Part shown: positions 12,860-36,259 of the stretch, piece after piece
Numbering within the stretch: position 1 is the first letter of the stretch
Layout: each line of letters opens with the position of its first letter
IMG/VR virus record: IMGVR_UViG_2684623171_000001
Strand: one strand, 5' to 3'
Source of the DNA: a virus
Lineage: Duplodnaviria; Heunggongvirae; Uroviricota; Caudoviricetes
DNA length: 39,217 nucleotides
Notes under the pieces: model-generated
What the model was told of the DNA's origin: nothing
What the model saw: only the letters and a program-made list of their open reading frames with translations
Database searches by the model: none
Made by a program: the position numbers and the translations under genes

Positions 12860-14523
12860 TGAATAACGCCGAAGAACTCTCACCCTTACTGACGAATACC
12901 GTCTCCACCCGCAAAATTGATCTGGCCGGTGAAAAAGCCCTGCTGGGCGTGGATGTGCCGGACAGCCTTGATTTGCCCGGTGATATGCCGGTGTTTCTGG
13001 ATTATCAGGCCCGCTGGTTTGAGGATGAAAGCGAGGTCTGCATCGCGGAAAAATCCCGCCGCACCGGGCTTACCTGGGCGGAAGCCGGGCGTAACGTCAT
13101 TACCGCTGCAAAACCGAAGCGGCGTGGTGGCCGCAATGTGTTTTATGTGGGGTCAAAGCAGGAGATGGCGCTGGAATATATTTCTGCCTGTGCACTGTTC
13201 TCCCGTGCCTTTAACCAGCTGGCAGATGCTGATGTGTATGAGCAGACCTTCTGGGATCGGGATAAAAAAGAAGAAATTCTGACCTACATGATCCGCTTTC
13301 CGAACAGTGGATTCAAAATTCAGGCACTGTCTTCCCGTCCGTCAAACCTGCGCGGCCTTCAGGGGGATGTGGTGATTGATGAAGCCGCGTTCCACGAGTC
13401 ACTGGATGAGCTTCTCAAGGCGGCAATGGCGCTTACCATGTGGGGCGCGCGCGTGCGTATTATCTCCACGCATAACGGCGTCGATAATCTGTTTAATCAG
13501 TACATTCAGGAAGCCCGCGAAGGGCGCAAGGATTACAGCGTCCACCGCATTACCCTGGATGATGCCATTGCGGACGGGCTGTACCGTCGTATCTGTTATG
13601 TCACCGGCCGCGAATGGTCACCGGAAAGCGAGCAGAAGTGGCGTGATGATCTCTACAAAAACGCCCCGACCCGTGAGGATGCCGACGAGGAATACGGCTG
13701 TATCCCGAAAAAATCCGGCGGTGCCTATATTCCTCACGCGCTTATTGAAATGGCGATGCTCCGCGACATCCCGATTCTGACGTTTGAAGCCCCGGACGAC
13801 TTCATCAGCCGTGCCGCATGGCTGCGTGAATCGGAAGTTTTAACCTGGTGTGAAGAACATTTAAAACCGCTTTTAGAGGCGTTAAATCCCCGTTCCCGCT
13901 TCAGCTTCGGGGAAGACTTTGCCCGCACCGGTGACCTGTCCTGCTTTGTGCTGCTGGAAATCACTGAATCCCTGGCAAAACGCGAGGTGTTTCGCGTGGA
14001 GCTGCGCAACCTGCCGTATGCCCAGCAGGAGCAGGTGATGATGTACATCCTGACCCGCGTTCCGGCGCTGGTCGGTGCGGCGTTCGACGCCACCGGTAAC
14101 GGCGGCTATCTGGCCGAAGCCGCGCTGCTGGCCTTTGGCCCGGACATCATCGACTGCGTGATGTTATCGCCGAAGTGGTACGGTGAGTGGATGCCAAAAC
14201 TGAAGGCCGAGTTTGAGGATCAGAATATCCTCGTCGCCCGCCATCAGACCACGCTTGATGATTTGCGCCATGTGAAGGTGGTGAACGGTATCCCGCAAAT
14301 CGACAAGGGGCGTACGAAGGACCAGAACGCAACGGCTGTGAACGCCCGCCGCCATGGTGATTTTGCCGTGGCGCTCTGTATGGCAAACCGGGCGTCATAC
14401 ATGGAGGGCTTCATCCTGGATGAATCAGCCTGTCAGGCGCTGCCGGAGCGGTCGCGGGCAATGGAGGGCGGTTATCGTGATGACGATGAGGCATATCATG
14501 AATTTGATCGGGGGTGCTGGTAG
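12859..14523 (+). CDS. Terminase large subunit (Mu gp28-like)
   Basis: 554 aa, position and size match Mu gp28; start overlaps the gp27 stop. Confidence 0.7.
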   Translation: MNNAEELSPLLTNTVSTRKIDLAGEKALLGVDVPDSLDLPGDMPVFLDYQARWFEDESEVCIAEKSRRTGLTWAEAGRNVITAAKPKRRGGRNVFYVGSKQEMALEYISACALFSRAFNQLADADVYEQTFWDRDKKEEILTYMIRFPNSGFKIQALSSRPSNLRGLQGDVVIDEAAFHESLDELLKAAMALTMWGARVRIISTHNGVDNLFNQYIQEAREGRKDYSVHRITLDDAIADGLYRRICYVTGREWSPESEQKWRDDLYKNAPTREDADEEYGCIPKKSGGAYIPHALIEMAMLRDIPILTFEAPDDFISRAAWLRESEVLTWCEEHLKPLLEALNPRSRFSFGEDFARTGDLSCFVLLEITESLAKREVFRVELRNLPYAQQEQVMMYILTRVPALVGAAFDATGNGGYLAEAALLAFGPDIIDCVMLSPKWYGEWMPKLKAEFEDQNILVARHQTTLDDLRHVKVVNGIPQIDKGRTKDQNATAVNARRHGDFAVALCMANRASYMEGFILDESACQALPERSRAMEGGYRDDDEAYHEFDRGCW

Positions 14524-16112
14524 TGGGACGCATAATTGATCTTGACGGAAAACCTTTCTCCTTTGACCCGGAGATGCAGAGTGCCGTGCTGGATATTCCG
14601 CAGATTGCCAGCCGTTATATTGAACATCCGGCCTCGGGTATCACCCCGAACCGGGCGGCGCAGTGCCTTCGCGGGGCTGAACGTGGCGATCTGATTGCCC
14701 AGTCCGATCTGGCGGCTGACATTGAAGAAAAGGATACCCACCTTTTTGCAGAGCTGGGCAAGCGACGTCTTGCCATTCAGAGCGTGCCCTGGAGTATTGA
14801 GCCGCCACCGAACGCCAGCGCGAATGAGAAAAAGGACGCGGAAATGCTCGACGAATATCTGCATTCCGCCGACTGGTTTGATGCCATGCTGTTTGACGCC
14901 ACGGATGCCATCCTGAAGGGCTATTCCTGCATGGAGATTGAGCACGGGATGCTCGGTAAAATGCACATCATCCGCGCCATCCGCTGGCGTGACAGCGGGC
15001 ATTTCTGCCTTAACCCGGATGATTTGAGCGAACTGCGGCTGCGTGACGGCAGCCATGCCGGGGTGGCGTTTCAGCCCTTTGGCTGGGTAGTGCATCAGTC
15101 ACGTTCACGCACCGGTTACGGTGGTGCGACGGGGCTTGTCAGAACGCTTATCTGGCCGTTCATTTTCAAAAACTATTCCGTGCGCGATCTGGCTGAATTT
15201 CTGGAGGTGTACGGCCTGCCGATGAAGGTCGGTAAATACCCGTCCGGGGCAACATCGGAGCAGAAAAGCGCCCTGATGCGGGCGGTGATGGATATCGGGC
15301 GACGTACAGGCGGGATCATCCCGGCCGGGATGTCGCTGGAGTTTCAGGTAGCCGCGAACGGTCAGGCCGATCCGTTTGAAACCATGATTTCGTGGGGGGA
15401 GCGTTCCATCTCCAAAGCTATCCTCGGCGGCACGCTGACCACGGAAGCCGGAGACAAAGGCGCGCGCTCACTGGGTGAGGTGCATAACGAGGTGCGCCGG
15501 GAAATCAGGGATTCTGATTTACGTCAGCTGGCCGCCACGCTGAACCGCGATCTGGTGTATCCGCTGTATGCCCTGAACACCGCCCACGCCATAGATATCC
15601 GTCGCCTGCCGCGTATCTGTTTCCAGACAAAAGAGCCGGGGGATATCACCAAAATCACCAGTGCGGTGATGCAGCTCAGTACGGGGATGGATATTCCTGA
15701 TCCCTGGGTACGGGACCAGACCGGTATTCCACAGCCTGCCCCCGGTGAAGCCATCTTCCGTGTCCGTCAGAGTGGCAATGAACCTGCTCAGACAGACAAA
15801 GAGATGCCACCGGAAAAACAGGAGAAGACAGAGCAGACGGCGCTGTCAGCCCGACTGCCGGAAGCGAAAAGCAGCCCCCGTGATGAACTGGACGATATGG
15901 GGGATGCGGTGCCTGCCCGCCGGTTACAGGACGCTATCGACCCGCTGCTGGAGCCGGTCATTGATGCCATCAGAACGCGGGGGCTGGCGGATGCGCTGGC
16001 AGACCTGCCTGCCCTTTACCGTGAAATGGATGATTCCCGCCTGATGACGCTGCTCAGTGATGCCATGTTTGCTGCGGAAATGAAGGGGATGCTGGATGGC
16101 ACAGGGGATTGA
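14514..16112 (+). CDS. Portal protein (Mu gp29-like)
   Basis: 532 aa following the terminase; acidic C-terminal tail. Confidence 0.7.
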   Translation: MLVVGRIIDLDGKPFSFDPEMQSAVLDIPQIASRYIEHPASGITPNRAAQCLRGAERGDLIAQSDLAADIEEKDTHLFAELGKRRLAIQSVPWSIEPPPNASANEKKDAEMLDEYLHSADWFDAMLFDATDAILKGYSCMEIEHGMLGKMHIIRAIRWRDSGHFCLNPDDLSELRLRDGSHAGVAFQPFGWVVHQSRSRTGYGGATGLVRTLIWPFIFKNYSVRDLAEFLEVYGLPMKVGKYPSGATSEQKSALMRAVMDIGRRTGGIIPAGMSLEFQVAANGQADPFETMISWGERSISKAILGGTLTTEAGDKGARSLGEVHNEVRREIRDSDLRQLAATLNRDLVYPLYALNTAHAIDIRRLPRICFQTKEPGDITKITSAVMQLSTGMDIPDPWVRDQTGIPQPAPGEAIFRVRQSGNEPAQTDKEMPPEKQEKTEQTALSARLPEAKSSPRDELDDMGDAVPARRLQDAIDPLLEPVIDAIRTRGLADALADLPALYREMDDSRLMTLLSDAMFAAEMKGMLDGTGD

Positions 16113-17421
16113 TTTAGGTTATGCCGCCACCCTTCCCTCAAAAGAGGCGGTGGCATACTTCCGCGCCAAAGGGGCGCATATCAGCTGGAACTGGTTCGAA
16201 ACAGACGCAGATGTTCATGCCCGATCGTTCACGGCGGCAAAAGCGGCACGCCTGGACGTACTGACCACACTACAGGCGGAAGTGCAACGGGCCATTGATG
16301 AGGGGATTTCACAGAAAGCATTTATCCGCACACTGACACCCCGCCTGCAAAAGCTGGGATGGTGGGGGAAGCAGATTGTGGTGGACAGCGCCGGTAACGC
16401 AGAAGAAGTACAGCTGGGCAGTCCCCGCCGTCTGGCGCTGATTTACAACGTGAACACCCGCGTGGCTTACAATGCCGGGCGTTACACGCAGATGATGAAC
16501 AACACGGACACGCATCCGTTCTGGCAGTATGTGGCGGTCATGGACAGCCGTACCCGCCCGTCGCATTCCACCCTTAACGGTCTGGTATTCCGCTATGATG
16601 ATCCGTTCTGGAAAACACACTACCCACCCAATGGCTGGAACTGCCGCTGCCGTGTGCGGCCATTGTCTCAGGCCCGTCTGGATGCAATGGGGTTATCCGT
16701 TTCATCCGGTGAGGATCATCTCTCCACCCGCAATGTTGAGGCTGGCGTGGATAAACAGACCGGAGAAGTCAGAGAAATGCCGGTGACCACATATTCAGAT
16801 GGCACCAGAACCATGACACCGGATGTGGGCTGGTCATATAACCCCGGTTCGGCGGCGTTCGGCACAGACCAGGCGCTGATCCGTAAACTGATCGAGGTGA
16901 AAAGCCCGGCGTTACGGGAAATGGTGGTTCAGGAGATGAACAACAGCCCGGAGCGGCAGCTGGCGTTCCGCATCTGGGCAAAAAATATCATGAAAACCCG
17001 GCGCGGTGGTCACGATATCCGCACGCTGGGCTTTATGACCGAAAGTATTGCGCAGGCAGTGGAAAGCCGGACAGGAACGCCACCGGCCCGCCTGCTGGCG
17101 ATGAGCGGTAAAAATGTGCTCCATGCGGACAGTGTGAAACATCAGAATGACGGTATCGCCCTGACGCCGGAGGATTTCGCGCAGCTTCCCGCCATGCTGG
17201 CTGCCCCCGATGCCGTGCTGTGGGATCATGTCCATCAGAACCTGCTTTACATCACTGAAACCCGTGACGGAACGGCAAAGATTGCCGTCAATGCGCCTTA
17301 TGGTGTGAAGCGCCAGCCGGATAAGCTGGATGTGGTAATTAATGCTTACCGGGTAAATAAATTTGATATTGAAAAAGCAATAGAGGGCGGAAAGCTGGAA
17401 CTACTGGAAGGTAAATTGTAA
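16096..17421 (+). CDS. F: Head morphogenesis protein (Mu F-like)
   Basis: 441 aa after the portal; size and synteny match Mu F. Confidence 0.7.
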   Translation: MAQGIDLGYAATLPSKEAVAYFRAKGAHISWNWFETDADVHARSFTAAKAARLDVLTTLQAEVQRAIDEGISQKAFIRTLTPRLQKLGWWGKQIVVDSAGNAEEVQLGSPRRLALIYNVNTRVAYNAGRYTQMMNNTDTHPFWQYVAVMDSRTRPSHSTLNGLVFRYDDPFWKTHYPPNGWNCRCRVRPLSQARLDAMGLSVSSGEDHLSTRNVEAGVDKQTGEVREMPVTTYSDGTRTMTPDVGWSYNPGSAAFGTDQALIRKLIEVKSPALREMVVQEMNNSPERQLAFRIWAKNIMKTRRGGHDIRTLGFMTESIAQAVESRTGTPPARLLAMSGKNVLHADSVKHQNDGIALTPEDFAQLPAMLAAPDAVLWDHVHQNLLYITETRDGTAKIAVNAPYGVKRQPDKLDVVINAYRVNKFDIEKAIEGGKLELLEGKL

Positions 17422-17539
17422 GCCGGTGACGGGGGTCGAACCCGCATAAACATATGACCCCTGAGGGTTTATGCCGCTTTACCAGTTAAGAGTACACCGG
17501 CCTGTATTTATTTTAATCAGATAGTTTTAAGGAGGCAAC

Positions 17540-18013
17540 ATGTCATCCATCGATGCAGCCGTGGTGGTGGACGTTGCGCGTCTCCAGCGGGTCTTTGCCC
17601 GGCTTCAGTTTGTGGGTGGTGGAAAAGACCTGGCCCGCAGTGTGGCGTCCAGCCTTCTGTCATCGTCAGAAATGGCGTTTGAACAGGAAAAAGAGCCGGA
17701 CGGCGAACGCTGGCATGACTGGTCAGATCCTTACCGCAAGTGGCGTACCCGTAAGGGAAACATGCCCGGCAAAATCCTGACGCTGAACGGCGATCTGGCC
17801 CGACGCCTGACCACGGATTATGGCGATACCTGGGCGCTGATTGGATCAAATGAGCCTTATGCGGCCATTCATCAGTGGGGTGGCCTGCCAGGTATGCCGC
17901 CTGGACCGGCGGCCATTGGTGCACGTCCGTATATGGGTTTTGATCAGGTGGCAGAGCAGGAGATCATGGACGAAATCAGAAAACGCTTTAAAAAGGCCAC
18001 AGAAACGCCTTAA
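17540..18013 (+). CDS. G: Virion morphogenesis protein (Mu G-like)
   Basis: 157 aa; GGAGG RBS; position and size match Mu G. Confidence 0.6.
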   Translation: MSSIDAAVVVDVARLQRVFARLQFVGGGKDLARSVASSLLSSSEMAFEQEKEPDGERWHDWSDPYRKWRTRKGNMPGKILTLNGDLARRLTTDYGDTWALIGSNEPYAAIHQWGGLPGMPPGPAAIGARPYMGFDQVAEQEIMDEIRKRFKKATETP

Positions 18014-18189
18014 TTGTTTAAGGTATGCAAATGCATTACCTTACCCCCTTCAGGCGCGTGTCGTGATTTTCTAACCTGTATTTAACGGGCTTTAAAATCT
18101 GCGTGAAGCGCCTTTGTATTTTTCCCCTGGAAGCACTTCCTGAAATCCCGCAAAACCCGCCCTGAAAATTCCCGGCCTATGCTGCCGGA

Positions 18190-34219: not shown

Positions 34220-36259
34220 ATGACGTCCAAATGGGTTCAACTATCATCAATGCCCGGAAACTTTACTGTTAAAGTTTCCGGTGGTACAGCGGCATTTCTT
34301 GAGGCTCCCTTTCCTCCGGCCGAAACAAAAGGAGGAATGACATTTGCTGACTGTCTCATCAGTTTTAATACACGGGATTGCCTGTGGGTAAGGCCAGTAT
34401 CCGGTGATCCGAGTGTGGAAATTACCGGAGCGGGTATTGGTGCGGTCATTCCGTTAAGTGCTGATGTTGCCGGTACTGCTGAACCGTCAGACTGGGATAA
34501 TGCTGAAACACATACCCGTCCGTCAGGAAATGAAACTGCTTCCAGCTCCCCTTCCTGGTATTACGTGGTGGTTCTTGCTGGTCAGTCAAACGGTATGGCT
34601 TACGGTGAAGGTCTGCCACTGCCGGAGACATATGACCGCCCCGAACCGCGTATTATGCAGTTAGCCCGTCGCAGTACAGTCACGCCGGGAGGTAAAGCCT
34701 GTCAGTATAACGACATCATTCTGGCCGACCACTGTCTGCATGATGTGCAGGATATGAGTGGAAAAAATCACCCGAAAGCGGATGTGGCTAAAGGGCAATA
34801 TGGCACCGTGGGTCAGGGGCTTCACATTGCCAAAAAACTGCTGCCGTTTATTCCGGCAGATGCGGGGATTCTGCTGGTTCCCTGCTGCCGTGGTGGTTCT
34901 GCATTCACGGCGGGTGCTGACGGCACGTACAGTGACAGCACGGGTGCTTCAGAGGACTCAGCCCGCTGGGGTGTGGATAAGCCGCTGTATAAGGACTTAA
35001 TCAGCCGGACAAAAGCGGCACTGGCGAAGAACCCGAAAAACCGCCTGCTTGCTGTGGTGTGGATGCAGGGCGAGTTTGATATTGATGCGAAGCCGACGGA
35101 GCATTCCGCGCTGTTTCTGGCGATGGTGGAAAAATTCCGCGCAGACCTGGCTGAACAGGCGGAACAGTGTACCGGTGGCAGTGCTGCTGGCGTTCCGTGG
35201 ATTTGTGGCGATACCACGTATTTCTGGAAACAGAAAAATGAACCGGCATACCAGGCAATCTATGGCGGCTACAAAAACAAAACAGATAAAAACATTCATT
35301 TCGTTCCATTAATGACAGATGAAAATGACGCGAATGTACCCACCAACAATCCGGCAGAAGACCCGGATATTGAATCCATTGGTTATTACGGCTCAACGTG
35401 GCGTAACAGTGCCGCCACCTGGACATCTGCGGACCGGGCCAGCCATTTCAGTTCATGGGCACGTCGTGGGATTATTTCCGACCGTCTGGCCACGGCAGTT
35501 CTGACTCATGCGGGGCGAACCACAGTAAAAGCCGATGTTCCATCTTCTGAAACTGAAGCACCAGTGCCGTCACCTTCAGAAACTGAAGCAGTAACCACAA
35601 CACTGCTGTCTTATCGTGTCAGTGAGTCAGAAGGAAATCTGAAAGCCCAGGGCTGGGAGCCGGCTGGCGGTAAAGCTGAAATTATCAGTGATGCAGGAGG
35701 CACAGGTGGTAAGGCAATGAAACTGACCAAGGAAACAGGTAAATCATCCTGGTATCTGGATCATGATGCCGGTACTGGTGCTGAACTGCTGAAAAATGGT
35801 GGTTTAATCAGTTGTCGTTTTAAAGTACCTGGCGACCTGGTGGCAAACCAGTATGTCATGGGGCTTTACTGGCCGGTTTCCTCTCTGCCGCAGGGTGTCA
35901 CCCTGACAGGGGATGCAGGGAATAATCTGCTGGCATCGTTCTACATCCAGACAGACGCAAAAGACCTGAATGTGATGTACCACAATGCAAAAGTGGCAAC
36001 AAATAACCAGAAACTGGGAACCTTTGGTGCATTTGATAATGAATGGCATACGCTGGCCTTCCGTTTTGCAGGAAATAACAGCCTTCAGGTTATTCCGGTT
36101 ATTGATGGTCAGGATGGTGCCGCGTTTACCCTGACGCAGTCACCAGTAGGAACTTTCCCGGTGGACAAACTCCGCGTAACGGATATCACAAAAAATGCAA
36201 CTTACCCGGTGCTGATTGACAGCATTGTGGTGGAAGTGAAAAAAGCGGTAACAGAATAA
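34220..36259 (+). CDS. SASA/SGNH-type sialate O-acetylesterase-like protein with unknown N-terminal domain and lectin-like C-terminal domain (NanS-p-like prophage esterase)
   Basis: 679 aa; GQSN catalytic motif (VVLAGQSNGMAYGEG) and downstream WMQGEFD; duplicated SETEA linker (PSSETEAPVPSPSETEAV); C-terminal ~220 aa have beta-rich, lectin-like composition; has no counterpart in Mu between gin and mom. Confidence 0.65.
   Translation: MTSKWVQLSSMPGNFTVKVSGGTAAFLEAPFPPAETKGGMTFADCLISFNTRDCLWVRPVSGDPSVEITGAGIGAVIPLSADVAGTAEPSDWDNAETHTRPSGNETASSSPSWYYVVVLAGQSNGMAYGEGLPLPETYDRPEPRIMQLARRSTVTPGGKACQYNDIILADHCLHDVQDMSGKNHPKADVAKGQYGTVGQGLHIAKKLLPFIPADAGILLVPCCRGGSAFTAGADGTYSDSTGASEDSARWGVDKPLYKDLISRTKAALAKNPKNRLLAVVWMQGEFDIDAKPTEHSALFLAMVEKFRADLAEQAEQCTGGSAAGVPWICGDTTYFWKQKNEPAYQAIYGGYKNKTDKNIHFVPLMTDENDANVPTNNPAEDPDIESIGYYGSTWRNSAATWTSADRASHFSSWARRGIISDRLATAVLTHAGRTTVKADVPSSETEAPVPSPSETEAVTTTLLSYRVSESEGNLKAQGWEPAGGKAEIISDAGGTGGKAMKLTKETGKSSWYLDHDAGTGAELLKNGGLISCRFKVPGDLVANQYVMGLYWPVSSLPQGVTLTGDAGNNLLASFYIQTDAKDLNVMYHNAKVATNNQKLGTFGAFDNEWHTLAFRFAGNNSLQVIPVIDGQDGAAFTLTQSPVGTFPVDKLRVTDITKNATYPVLIDSIVVEVKKAVTE

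Follow-up and report, generated by a model that had tools for sequence, protein, structure and literature searches.

Mimicry of tRNA is already known from tmRNA, Y RNAs and viral tRNA-like structures. In bacteria, tmRNA (SsrA) reproduces the acceptor and T arm of a tRNA without an anticodon, while YrlA, a bacterial Y-RNA module that has been reported in some phages too, is a non-coding and non-decoded RNA that mimics the D/T elbow, with its ends at the anticodon-stem site and its acceptor-like stem closed. The c4 RNAs of P1 and P7 and the CI RNA of P4, found in prophages and satellites, are small and stable; they have a basal stem resembling an acceptor and type-specific variable parts, are excised by RNase P and act through complementary loops. 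Finally, mascRNA, the tRNA-like RNAs of gammaherpesvirus-68 and engineered tRNA scaffolds share a tRNA body in which the anticodon arm is reduced or replaced, do not decode, and have tRNA-type stability or processing; these are eukaryotic, viral Pol III or artificial RNAs that mature through RNase P, RNase Z and CCA addition.

The window (i.e., the whole stretch of 39,217 nucleotides analyzed here) carries a tRNA-shaped element at 17420-17503 on the minus strand. Like canonical and phage tRNAs, this element has acceptor, D and T arms, the universal tertiary bases, a 4-nt variable loop and a score just over the Rfam cut-off. Unlike them, it has no 7-nt anticodon loop (such a loop is found in none of the 33 members of the family described below), it carries one extra base after position 9, and it is closed by a covarying helix of 9 bp instead of 7 bp followed by a single-stranded NCCA. 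Since the anticodon arm and the acceptor end are not those of a tRNA, even though the score and the tertiary core are, the element should not be filed as a tRNA. It also lacks the G3.U70 pair and the mRNA-like domain of tmRNA, and has both a full D arm and a middle arm; neither Rfam nor ARAGORN returned a tmRNA match for it. Compared to YrlA the arrangement is the opposite one, with the head genes F and G as neighbors and neither rsr nor rtcB, and Rfam gave no YrlA match for the element. In contrast to the c4 and CI RNAs its loops are mostly tetraloops; the Rfam C4 model gave no match at E <= 10, and the complement of the middle arm, or of the 15-nt loop proposed in a first-pass annotation made from the sequence alone, was found within the window only at the element's own locus. 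Its working principle most resembles that of the non-decoding tRNA mimics and engineered tRNA scaffolds, although this is a bacterial element with a putative promoter of the sigma-70 type, a transcript expected to have almost no leader, and the 9-bp helix as its closing stem. Overall, we consider it very probable that this locus is a conserved, transcribed gene for a tRNA-shaped, non-decoding RNA.

The window represents a Mu-like prophage of the Sp18 type known from E. coli O157, in which the order and sizes of the open reading frames (ORFs) agree with those of Mu (Table 1). Pfam domains also identify a Gin-type invertase, Mom and, at the right end, a fragment of the host DcuC; a 679-aa ORF located 3' of the invertase gene (34220-36259) carries a SASA (sialate O-acetylesterase-type) domain and DUF6645. 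The spacer between F and G is 118 nt long and contains the element antisense to both genes, a location already given by the first-pass annotation and borne out by the Pfam domains Phage_Mu_F and Phage_tail_S on either side. The next spacer, between G and I (18014-18189), occupies the place of the gyrase cut site, the terminator and the late promoter P_I in the Mu record. Many chromosomes of O157:H7 and other STEC strains contain DNA identical to it, and 206 of 5426 E. coli genomes have the F-G junction, at identities that fall into bands of ≥99%, 80–90% and 60–80%. Only two GenBank phage records matched this DNA, both of them Stx phages with an inserted Mu-like phage. Sp18-type prophages have been reported to be capable of transposition (PMC7430833). 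Two strains differ near the junction. In E. coli E2865 (L001, 1-1622), the portal (DUF935) and F genes are frameshifted pseudogenes according to PGAP; its 100% identity to the window covers the 351 nt of the F-G query only, F is annotated there with 1325 vs. 1326 nt, and the portal and F ORFs of the window are both intact (14514-16112 and 16096-17421). In O157:H7 Z1826 (L007, 299-1476), an IS3-family element separates the end of F from the 3' side of the tRNA-like element, and the RNA gene and promoter are undamaged despite this adjoining insertion.

Table 1. Genes, promoter-like sites and structural parts of the tRNA-shaped element at the F-G junction (positions in the window).
Feature	Positions	Strand	Basis or comment
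Gene F, Mu F-type minor head protein	16096..17421	+	Pfam Phage_Mu_F and MuF_C; 61% identical to Mu gp30
Closing helix, 3' strand, CACCGGCUU	17420..17428	-	sequence
T arm GCGGG-UUCGACC-CCCGU; G49.U65 wobble; G53, U54, U55, C56, A58, C61	17429..17445	-	
Variable loop UUAU, 4 nt; U48 partners A15	17446..17449	-	U48 invariant in 33/33
Middle arm in place of anticodon arm: GCAUA/UAUGU, internal loop, ACCC-UCAG-GGGU	17450..17474	-	MFE fold
U8-A9 and one extra C, D arm UCUU / AACUGGUA / AAGC; A14, A15, G18, G19, A21	17476..17494	-	Rfam alignment
Closing helix, 5' strand, 9 bp, AGGCCGGUG	17495..17503	-	all 9 pairs covary
Predicted transcription start, 7th nt after the -10 and first closing-helix base (position -2)	17503	-	inferred from promoter geometry
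-10-like hexamer TAAAAT	17510..17515	-	promoter scan
-35-like hexamer TTGCCT	17533..17538	-	promoter scan; 2 nt from complement of the ATG of G (17540-17542)
Gene G, virion morphogenesis / neck protein	17540..18013	+	Pfam Phage_tail_S; 54% identical to Mu G

Detection of the element depends on the tool and its settings. With permissive filters, the Rfam tRNA model RF00005 searched against 17300-17650 scored 31.4 bits (cut-off 29, E = 7e-5) over 17421-17501, spanning the full model with 15 nt of the anticodon region aligned as an insert, and relatives of the element match the same model at 35–37 bits (range over the family 31.4–37.3). With default filters and gathering thresholds, Rfam gave no match across the whole window, and ARAGORN called neither a tRNA nor a tmRNA in it. 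RefSeq/PGAP labels identical copies “tRNA-OTHER.” A covariance model of the family itself, built from an alignment of 19 variants, found a single copy in the window (17418-17503, 86.4 bits). Rfam 15 holds no dedicated family for the element, and a full-text literature search returned no description of it, including on satellites.

Most of the tRNA-like parts pointed out in the first-pass annotation are present as described, namely the 7-bp stem of GCCGGTG (17501-17495) with CACCGGC (17428-17422) on the minus strand, U8-A9 directly after it (17494-17493), the GG (17483-17482) of the D-loop TAACTGGTA, and the T arm GCGGG-TTCGACC-CCCGT (17445-17429). The acceptor-like helix, however, is really 9 bp long (17503-17495 with 17428-17420) and includes these 7 bp, and the last two bases of its 3' strand are the complement of the AA in the TAA stop of F (17419-17421). 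The remaining proposal, an 8-bp stem between GCATAAAC (17474-17467) and GTTTATGC (17451-17444), or GCAUAAAC/GUUUAUGC as RNA, with a 15-nt loop, can pair but is neither the favored nor the conserved fold: it consumes G49 and C50 of the T stem, although pair 50:64 covaries in relatives, it abolishes the 4-nt variable loop, and it has no equivalent in the other types of the family. The minimum free energy (MFE) fold is a four-way cloverleaf with a middle arm formed by GGCAUA/UAUGUU, an internal loop and a tetraloop-capped ACCC-UCAG-GGGU; in both this fold and the family consensus, the base stem of the middle arm measures 5–6 bp and is followed by a small internal loop. A cloverleaf was likewise obtained for all eight variants folded. 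The element of the window, ~84 nt long and without an ORF domain, has no anticodon loop, and CCA is not encoded by the phage copies, this one included. The minus strand of the middle arm reads AUAAACC at 17465-17472, in type A only and in none of the other types.

Comparative analysis indicates that this structure is maintained by selection. An alignment of eight variants displayed compensatory changes in the acceptor and T stems, together with a middle arm that differs wholly in sequence and length. Pairing was scored over a model of 21 pairs (the 9-bp closing helix, the 4-bp D stem, three basal pairs of the middle arm and the 5-bp T stem). In a MAFFT alignment of 19 variants, which was not fitted to this model, 95.2% of cells were paired vs. 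37–51% in slid controls, 12 of the 21 pairs included double-sided changes, and the covariation score was reached by none of 500 shuffles. For 33 members including distant ones, whose alignment was fitted to this model, pairing is found in 97.5% of cells and compensatory change in 18 of the 21 pairs, with again no shuffle out of 500 reaching any of the measures. The cells include 39 G.U vs. 2 A.C, and 95.2% of them are paired when read on the minus strand vs. 86.0% on the plus strand; this asymmetry between G.U and A.C shows that the minus-strand RNA is under selection, rather than the DNA or the late mRNA.

The covariation extends beyond the canonical acceptor stem. Across the 33 members, pair -2:74 is AU in 19, CG in 5 and GC in 3, and pair -1:73 is AU in 13, GC in 13, UA in 4 and GU in 3. 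Since both pairs covary, positions 73 and 74 appear to be selected to be paired, and not single-stranded. The T-stem pairs 50:64 and 51:63 covary as well, as do the basal pairs of the middle arm (G.U in 20; U-A in 20 and C-G in 12; G-C in 16 and A-U in 12). Fourteen bases (U8, A14, A15, G18, G19, U20, A21, U48, G53, U54, U55, C56, A58, and C61) are invariant in 32–33 of the 33 members, and such an invariant core is the signature of a real tRNA L-shape. Other parts are far more variable. Beyond its basal pairs the middle arm is a hypervariable hairpin of about 5–11 bp, some arms having only 4–5 bp, and no arm sequence motif is common to the whole family. Twenty-two of the 33 members have a tetraloop cap (nine UUCG, three GCAA, one GAAA and others), the rest having loops of 3, 5, 6, 9, 10, or 14 nt, and within a type the apical loop drifts (UCAG, UCAA, UCCG, UUCG, UAAC) while the stem is retained. 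The sequences of the acceptor helix differ among types, as does base 73 (U, C, or A), and pair 3:70 among the 19 variants is CG in 14, UA in three, AU in one and UG in one, and never G.U.

On the strand of the element, a sigma-70-like site, TTGCCT-17-TAAAAT (17538-17510), precedes the closing helix. The TAAAAT is invariant in the eight-sequence alignment, in which adjacent intergenic bases vary. Most variants keep a -35-like hexamer beside the CAT of the G start codon, which in distant members approaches the consensus (TTGACA, TTGAAC), a conservation that is confounded by the ribosome-binding site and start codon of G on the opposite strand. In the phage-borne variants compared for this feature, with the exception of L063/L076, a -10-like hexamer (TAAAAT, TACAAT, or TATACT) ends 5–7 nt before the first helix base, and this distance holds for helices of 9, 11, or 14 bp. 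The promoters of distant members (TTGACA-17-TAAATT and TTGAAC-17-TATAAT) still abut the complement of the G start codon, with a predicted start 5–8 nt before the helix that would leave a short leader. “Leaderless” is thus not a valid description of the whole family. A promoter and terminator scan of the window revealed no clear terminator after the element, and the 3' end is presumably made by processing. Transcription of the element and the positions of its 5' and 3' ends are here predicted from sequence features.

Pattern scans of IMG/VR, GTDB genomes and metagenomes provided 23 distinct variants of the element. A strict-pattern scan of one genome per species yielded a single true match, in Citrobacter braakii, besides two ordinary tRNAs and an unexplained element of tRNA-like form. 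More distant Mu-like phages were reached through an alignment of the F protein, the family model then being run on their loci. The element was found directly after F, and always on the opposite strand, at F identities to the window of 64–67%, 52%, 46%, and 41–47%. In the isolated Pasteurella phage Pmp9 (OR544140), an unannotated element (L181 2818-2901, 60 bits with the family model) has the gene for the minor head protein on one side and that for Neck1 on the other. The family model found no element at loci where F is 60% identical to that of the window, which is close to the value for the F of Mu (61%), nor at a few others, and the element is absent from the F-G junction of L062/L127 and from Mu, in which F and G overlap. 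With regard to the criteria for a “moron,” a promoter-like site is present and conserved, and Mu and L062/L127 are without the insert at the junction. The metagenome contig Ga0209599_10049188 (L083), from a more distant phage, carries two antisense units (119-196 and 753-832), each with a TATACT -10 upstream, which flank a segment for the C-terminal part of an F homolog; F may be split there, and the contig is seemingly frameshifted. In a MAG of Mucilaginibacter, an unrelated bacterium, the family model gave 40.7 bits for a tRNA-like sequence whose middle arm is long (L070 7469-7560); this could be either a tRNA of unusual form or a tRNA-like element that has no relation to the family.

The element is also found away from F and G, on satellite islands. 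The metagenome loci L089, L092/L096, and L098 have two or three tandem units that are not beside either gene, and in E. coli JNEC-KY203 a three-unit array (13131-13437 of L102) terminates an 11-kb island (L102 2446-13437) inserted between yicC and dinD. Besides PerC and a Mor-family activator, this island encodes an integrase, an AlpA-like HTH protein, AntA, Icd-like proteins, a toprim primase and a DUF927 helicase. A second island, in STEC17-183 (L103 6042-14038), lies inside mdtP and has a different integrase and a RepA helicase. The two share an SSB-PerC-Mor-array module at the island right end, 96% identical, which includes GTGAAA repeats, a palindrome and a promoter-like site, TTTACC-17-TACTAT; the palindrome proximal to this promoter was not found in the window. 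The three satellite units are of different types (CCC-UAAC-GGG; a 6-bp stem with a 14-nt loop; AGCCU-GUAC-AGGCU), and PGAP annotates them as tRNA-OTHER or, spuriously, as tRNA-Tyr. In the host DNA near the island of L098 (10112-10366), the Rfam model Ysr141 (Yersinia sRNA 141) scored 160 bits, below its cut-off of 196.

The Mor protein of the island is 47% identical to the Mor homolog of the window. The module is present in 14 of the 5426 E. coli genomes, at least eight of which show a second query match vs. a base rate of 3.8% for the F-G junction, a comparison uncorrected for strain relatedness. Direct checking of KY202 and KY203 showed a Mu-like F-G junction in the same genome as the island. 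The gene set of the islands agrees with that of Gram-negative PICIs (PMC6092414, PMC11773190), and a Pasteurella PICI with a Mu-like helper has been reported (PMC6092414). Among the identities left open by the first-pass annotation, that of a tRNA-like structured RNA is the one supported by the 18 compensatory pairs of 21 in the 33 relatives, the invariant core bases and the conserved promoter. A degenerate tRNA, or a remnant, is not supported: structure, promoter and position are kept at F identities of 41–67% and three units occur on satellites, while a relic would not have kept the former over such distances and would not be tripled on satellites.

At the nucleotide level, the window and L004 are 97.9% identical in G, 76.9% in the RNA core and 79.4% in the last 450 nt of F, and G is 94–98% identical between phage types (window, L004, and L002). 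The divergence of the F protein is concentrated in its last ~70 residues. With G near-identical while the RNA core and the end of F diverge, the RNA appears to be located at a mosaic boundary, and from these sequence comparisons we infer that it behaves as a set of old alleles, like conflict or specificity loci. A toxin/immunity-style cassette made of the F C-terminal domain and the RNA was considered and rejected, as F is orthologous to Mu F over its full length and displays a divergence gradient, not a domain swap.

As the best explanation for these observations, we tentatively favor a stable tRNA mimic that does not decode, is encoded by a self-contained gene and would act in trans. Sp18-type and many other Mu-like phages would carry this ~84-nt RNA as an accessory “moron”-type gene, with a sigma-70-type promoter that abuts the start codon of G and would fire leftward, against the late operon. 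Transcription would start at the 9-bp helix or a few bases before it, so that the 5' end would be paired and require little or no RNase P trimming. The RNA would then adopt a genuine tRNA L-shape, with D and T arms, the universal tertiary bases and a 4-nt variable loop, but with the anticodon arm swapped for a closed, usually tetraloop-capped hairpin and with no encoded CCA, which would make codon reading impossible and aminoacylation unlikely. In trans, such an RNA may occupy or divert a protein that recognizes the tRNA body (elbow and acceptor/T stack) and not the anticodon, candidate partners being a tRNA-targeting nuclease, another defense or counter-defense factor, or a tRNA-processing enzyme.

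Both the action in trans and the kind of partner are deduced indirectly, a trans-acting RNA being the simplest view given the copies that lie away from F and G (i.e., the satellite arrays and the second copy of L083). The decoy mechanism itself, drawn from anatomy and analogy, is plausible but somewhat less likely than not. Since the acceptor-helix sequences differ between types, no particular host tRNA seems to be imitated. The body-mimic reading fits the accessory position in the head region, the apparently constitutive promoter, the allele-like divergence and the carriage by satellites; in Pseudomonas, Mu-like phages have anti-CRISPR genes in the head region. Counting against a mimic, the 9-bp helix departs from the 7-bp-plus-NCCA geometry that is measured by many tRNA-binding enzymes.

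The strict antisense position beside the G start could alternatively reflect a local, cis-acting role, in which the leftward promoter and its RNA would tune the expression of F and G or the cleavage of their mRNA, by antisense pairing or transcriptional interference, with the tRNA shape stabilizing the 5' end. The RNA is a perfect complement of the spacer that separates F and G in the late mRNA, every phage-borne copy examined is antisense to the late operon, the -35 abuts the G start codon in nearly all lineages while the 3' strand of the helix overlaps the F stop, and RNA and target would change together, which could explain the many types. We nevertheless regard this role as distinctly unlikely, as satellite islands bear the RNA without F or G, and the middle-arm hairpins of the second and third satellite units are absent from all the Mu-like prophage copies examined. 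Regulation in cis would also have no need for invariant tertiary-core bases, the Shine-Dalgarno sequence of G is outside the RNA, and in Mu the two genes overlap and the element is missing. Within the L-fold, moreover, the D and T loops are mutually engaged, and the sole free loop is mostly a tetraloop, poorly suited to kissing interactions.

A natural “tRNA scaffold,” in which the body would provide stability or processing and the variable hairpin would be the active part (as a protein-binding decoy or a CRISPR-repeat-like mimic), appears improbable. The hairpin is type-specific, with three different hairpins per satellite array, and engineered tRNA scaffolds likewise replace the anticodon arm with an insert; the AUAAACC of type A furthermore corresponds to 7 of 8 nt of what we take to be the 5' handle of the E. 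coli type I-E repeat, AUAAACCG, a resemblance that may well be due to chance. These points are set against an arm without any family-wide sequence motif, whose apical loop drifts freely within a type while the stem is kept, and which is in some lineages only 4–5 bp long. Most lineages have generic UUCG or GNRA caps, and these generic tetraloops disfavor both a hairpin “payload” and a loop-loop antisense mechanism.

We find it very improbable that the element works, fully or nearly, as a tRNA, or that it is a charged RNA of the tmRNA kind, either of which would be trimmed to 7 bp, carry CCA and be aminoacylated by an anticodon-independent synthetase. Mu prophage control reportedly needs the tRNA function of tmRNA, according to the citation of Ranquet et al. 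(2001) in PMC11633108. A G-1:C73 pair, a HisRS-type determinant, occurs in 12 of the 19 variants, and a CCA is located near the 3' end in some satellite units and in L095. Yet no member out of 33 has an anticodon loop, pairs -1:73 and -2:74 covary and are hence paired, and the phage copies encode no CCA. Charging is thus disfavored by the pairing of positions 73 and 74 and by the lack of consistent identity elements, with 3:70 never G.U, a short variable arm, and a type-dependent base 73 (U, C, or A). Two specific identities were rejected on this basis: a tmRNA-like or AlaRS identity, as 3:70 is never G.U, and a HisRS-type identity as a feature of the family, given a variable base 73 and selection for pairing at -1:73 and -2:74. 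Lastly, a role in the DNA only, as an integrase attachment site or a recombination hot spot, or a tRNA gene in decay, in each case with no function as RNA, is scarcely credible and already largely refuted: integration into tRNA genes is common, the region marks a mosaic boundary and an IS3 lies beside the element in one strain, but the 39 G.U vs. 2 A.C cells denote selection on one RNA strand, the promoter is conserved, compensatory changes and long-range conservation are observed, and the satellites insert in the yicC-dinD spacer and in mdtP, not in tRNA-like sequence.

If the non-decoding tRNA mimic is retained as the preferred reading, the fast, allele-like divergence and the three versions on satellites suggest a part in the conflict between phage, satellite and host. 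The satellites would hold three allelic versions under a putative promoter adjoining a Mor-type activator gene, and it is tempting to speculate, although we consider it somewhat unlikely, that helper phages and PICI-type satellites share anticodon-less tRNA mimics as RNA effectors in this conflict. Such effectors could block, or be sensed by, an immune or processing factor that recognizes the tRNA body, or could aid the exploitation of the helper by the satellite.

Neither Rfam nor the literature provided a promoter-equipped, anticodon-less tRNA mimic of Mu-like phages with a 9-bp helix. The mimic described here spans Mu-like phages of Escherichia, Citrobacter, and Pasteurella hosts and is multiplied on satellite islands, and annotation pipelines silently file it as “tRNA-OTHER,” or even “tRNA-Tyr.” Should it serve as an effector when phage, satellite and host are in conflict, a player made only of RNA would join a field dominated by proteins, and a family of Mor-bearing, PICI-like islands would be tied to Sp18-type helpers in Shiga-toxin-producing E. 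coli. If helper phages and satellites do share such effectors, RNA-only accessory genes that pass between them would form a new class.
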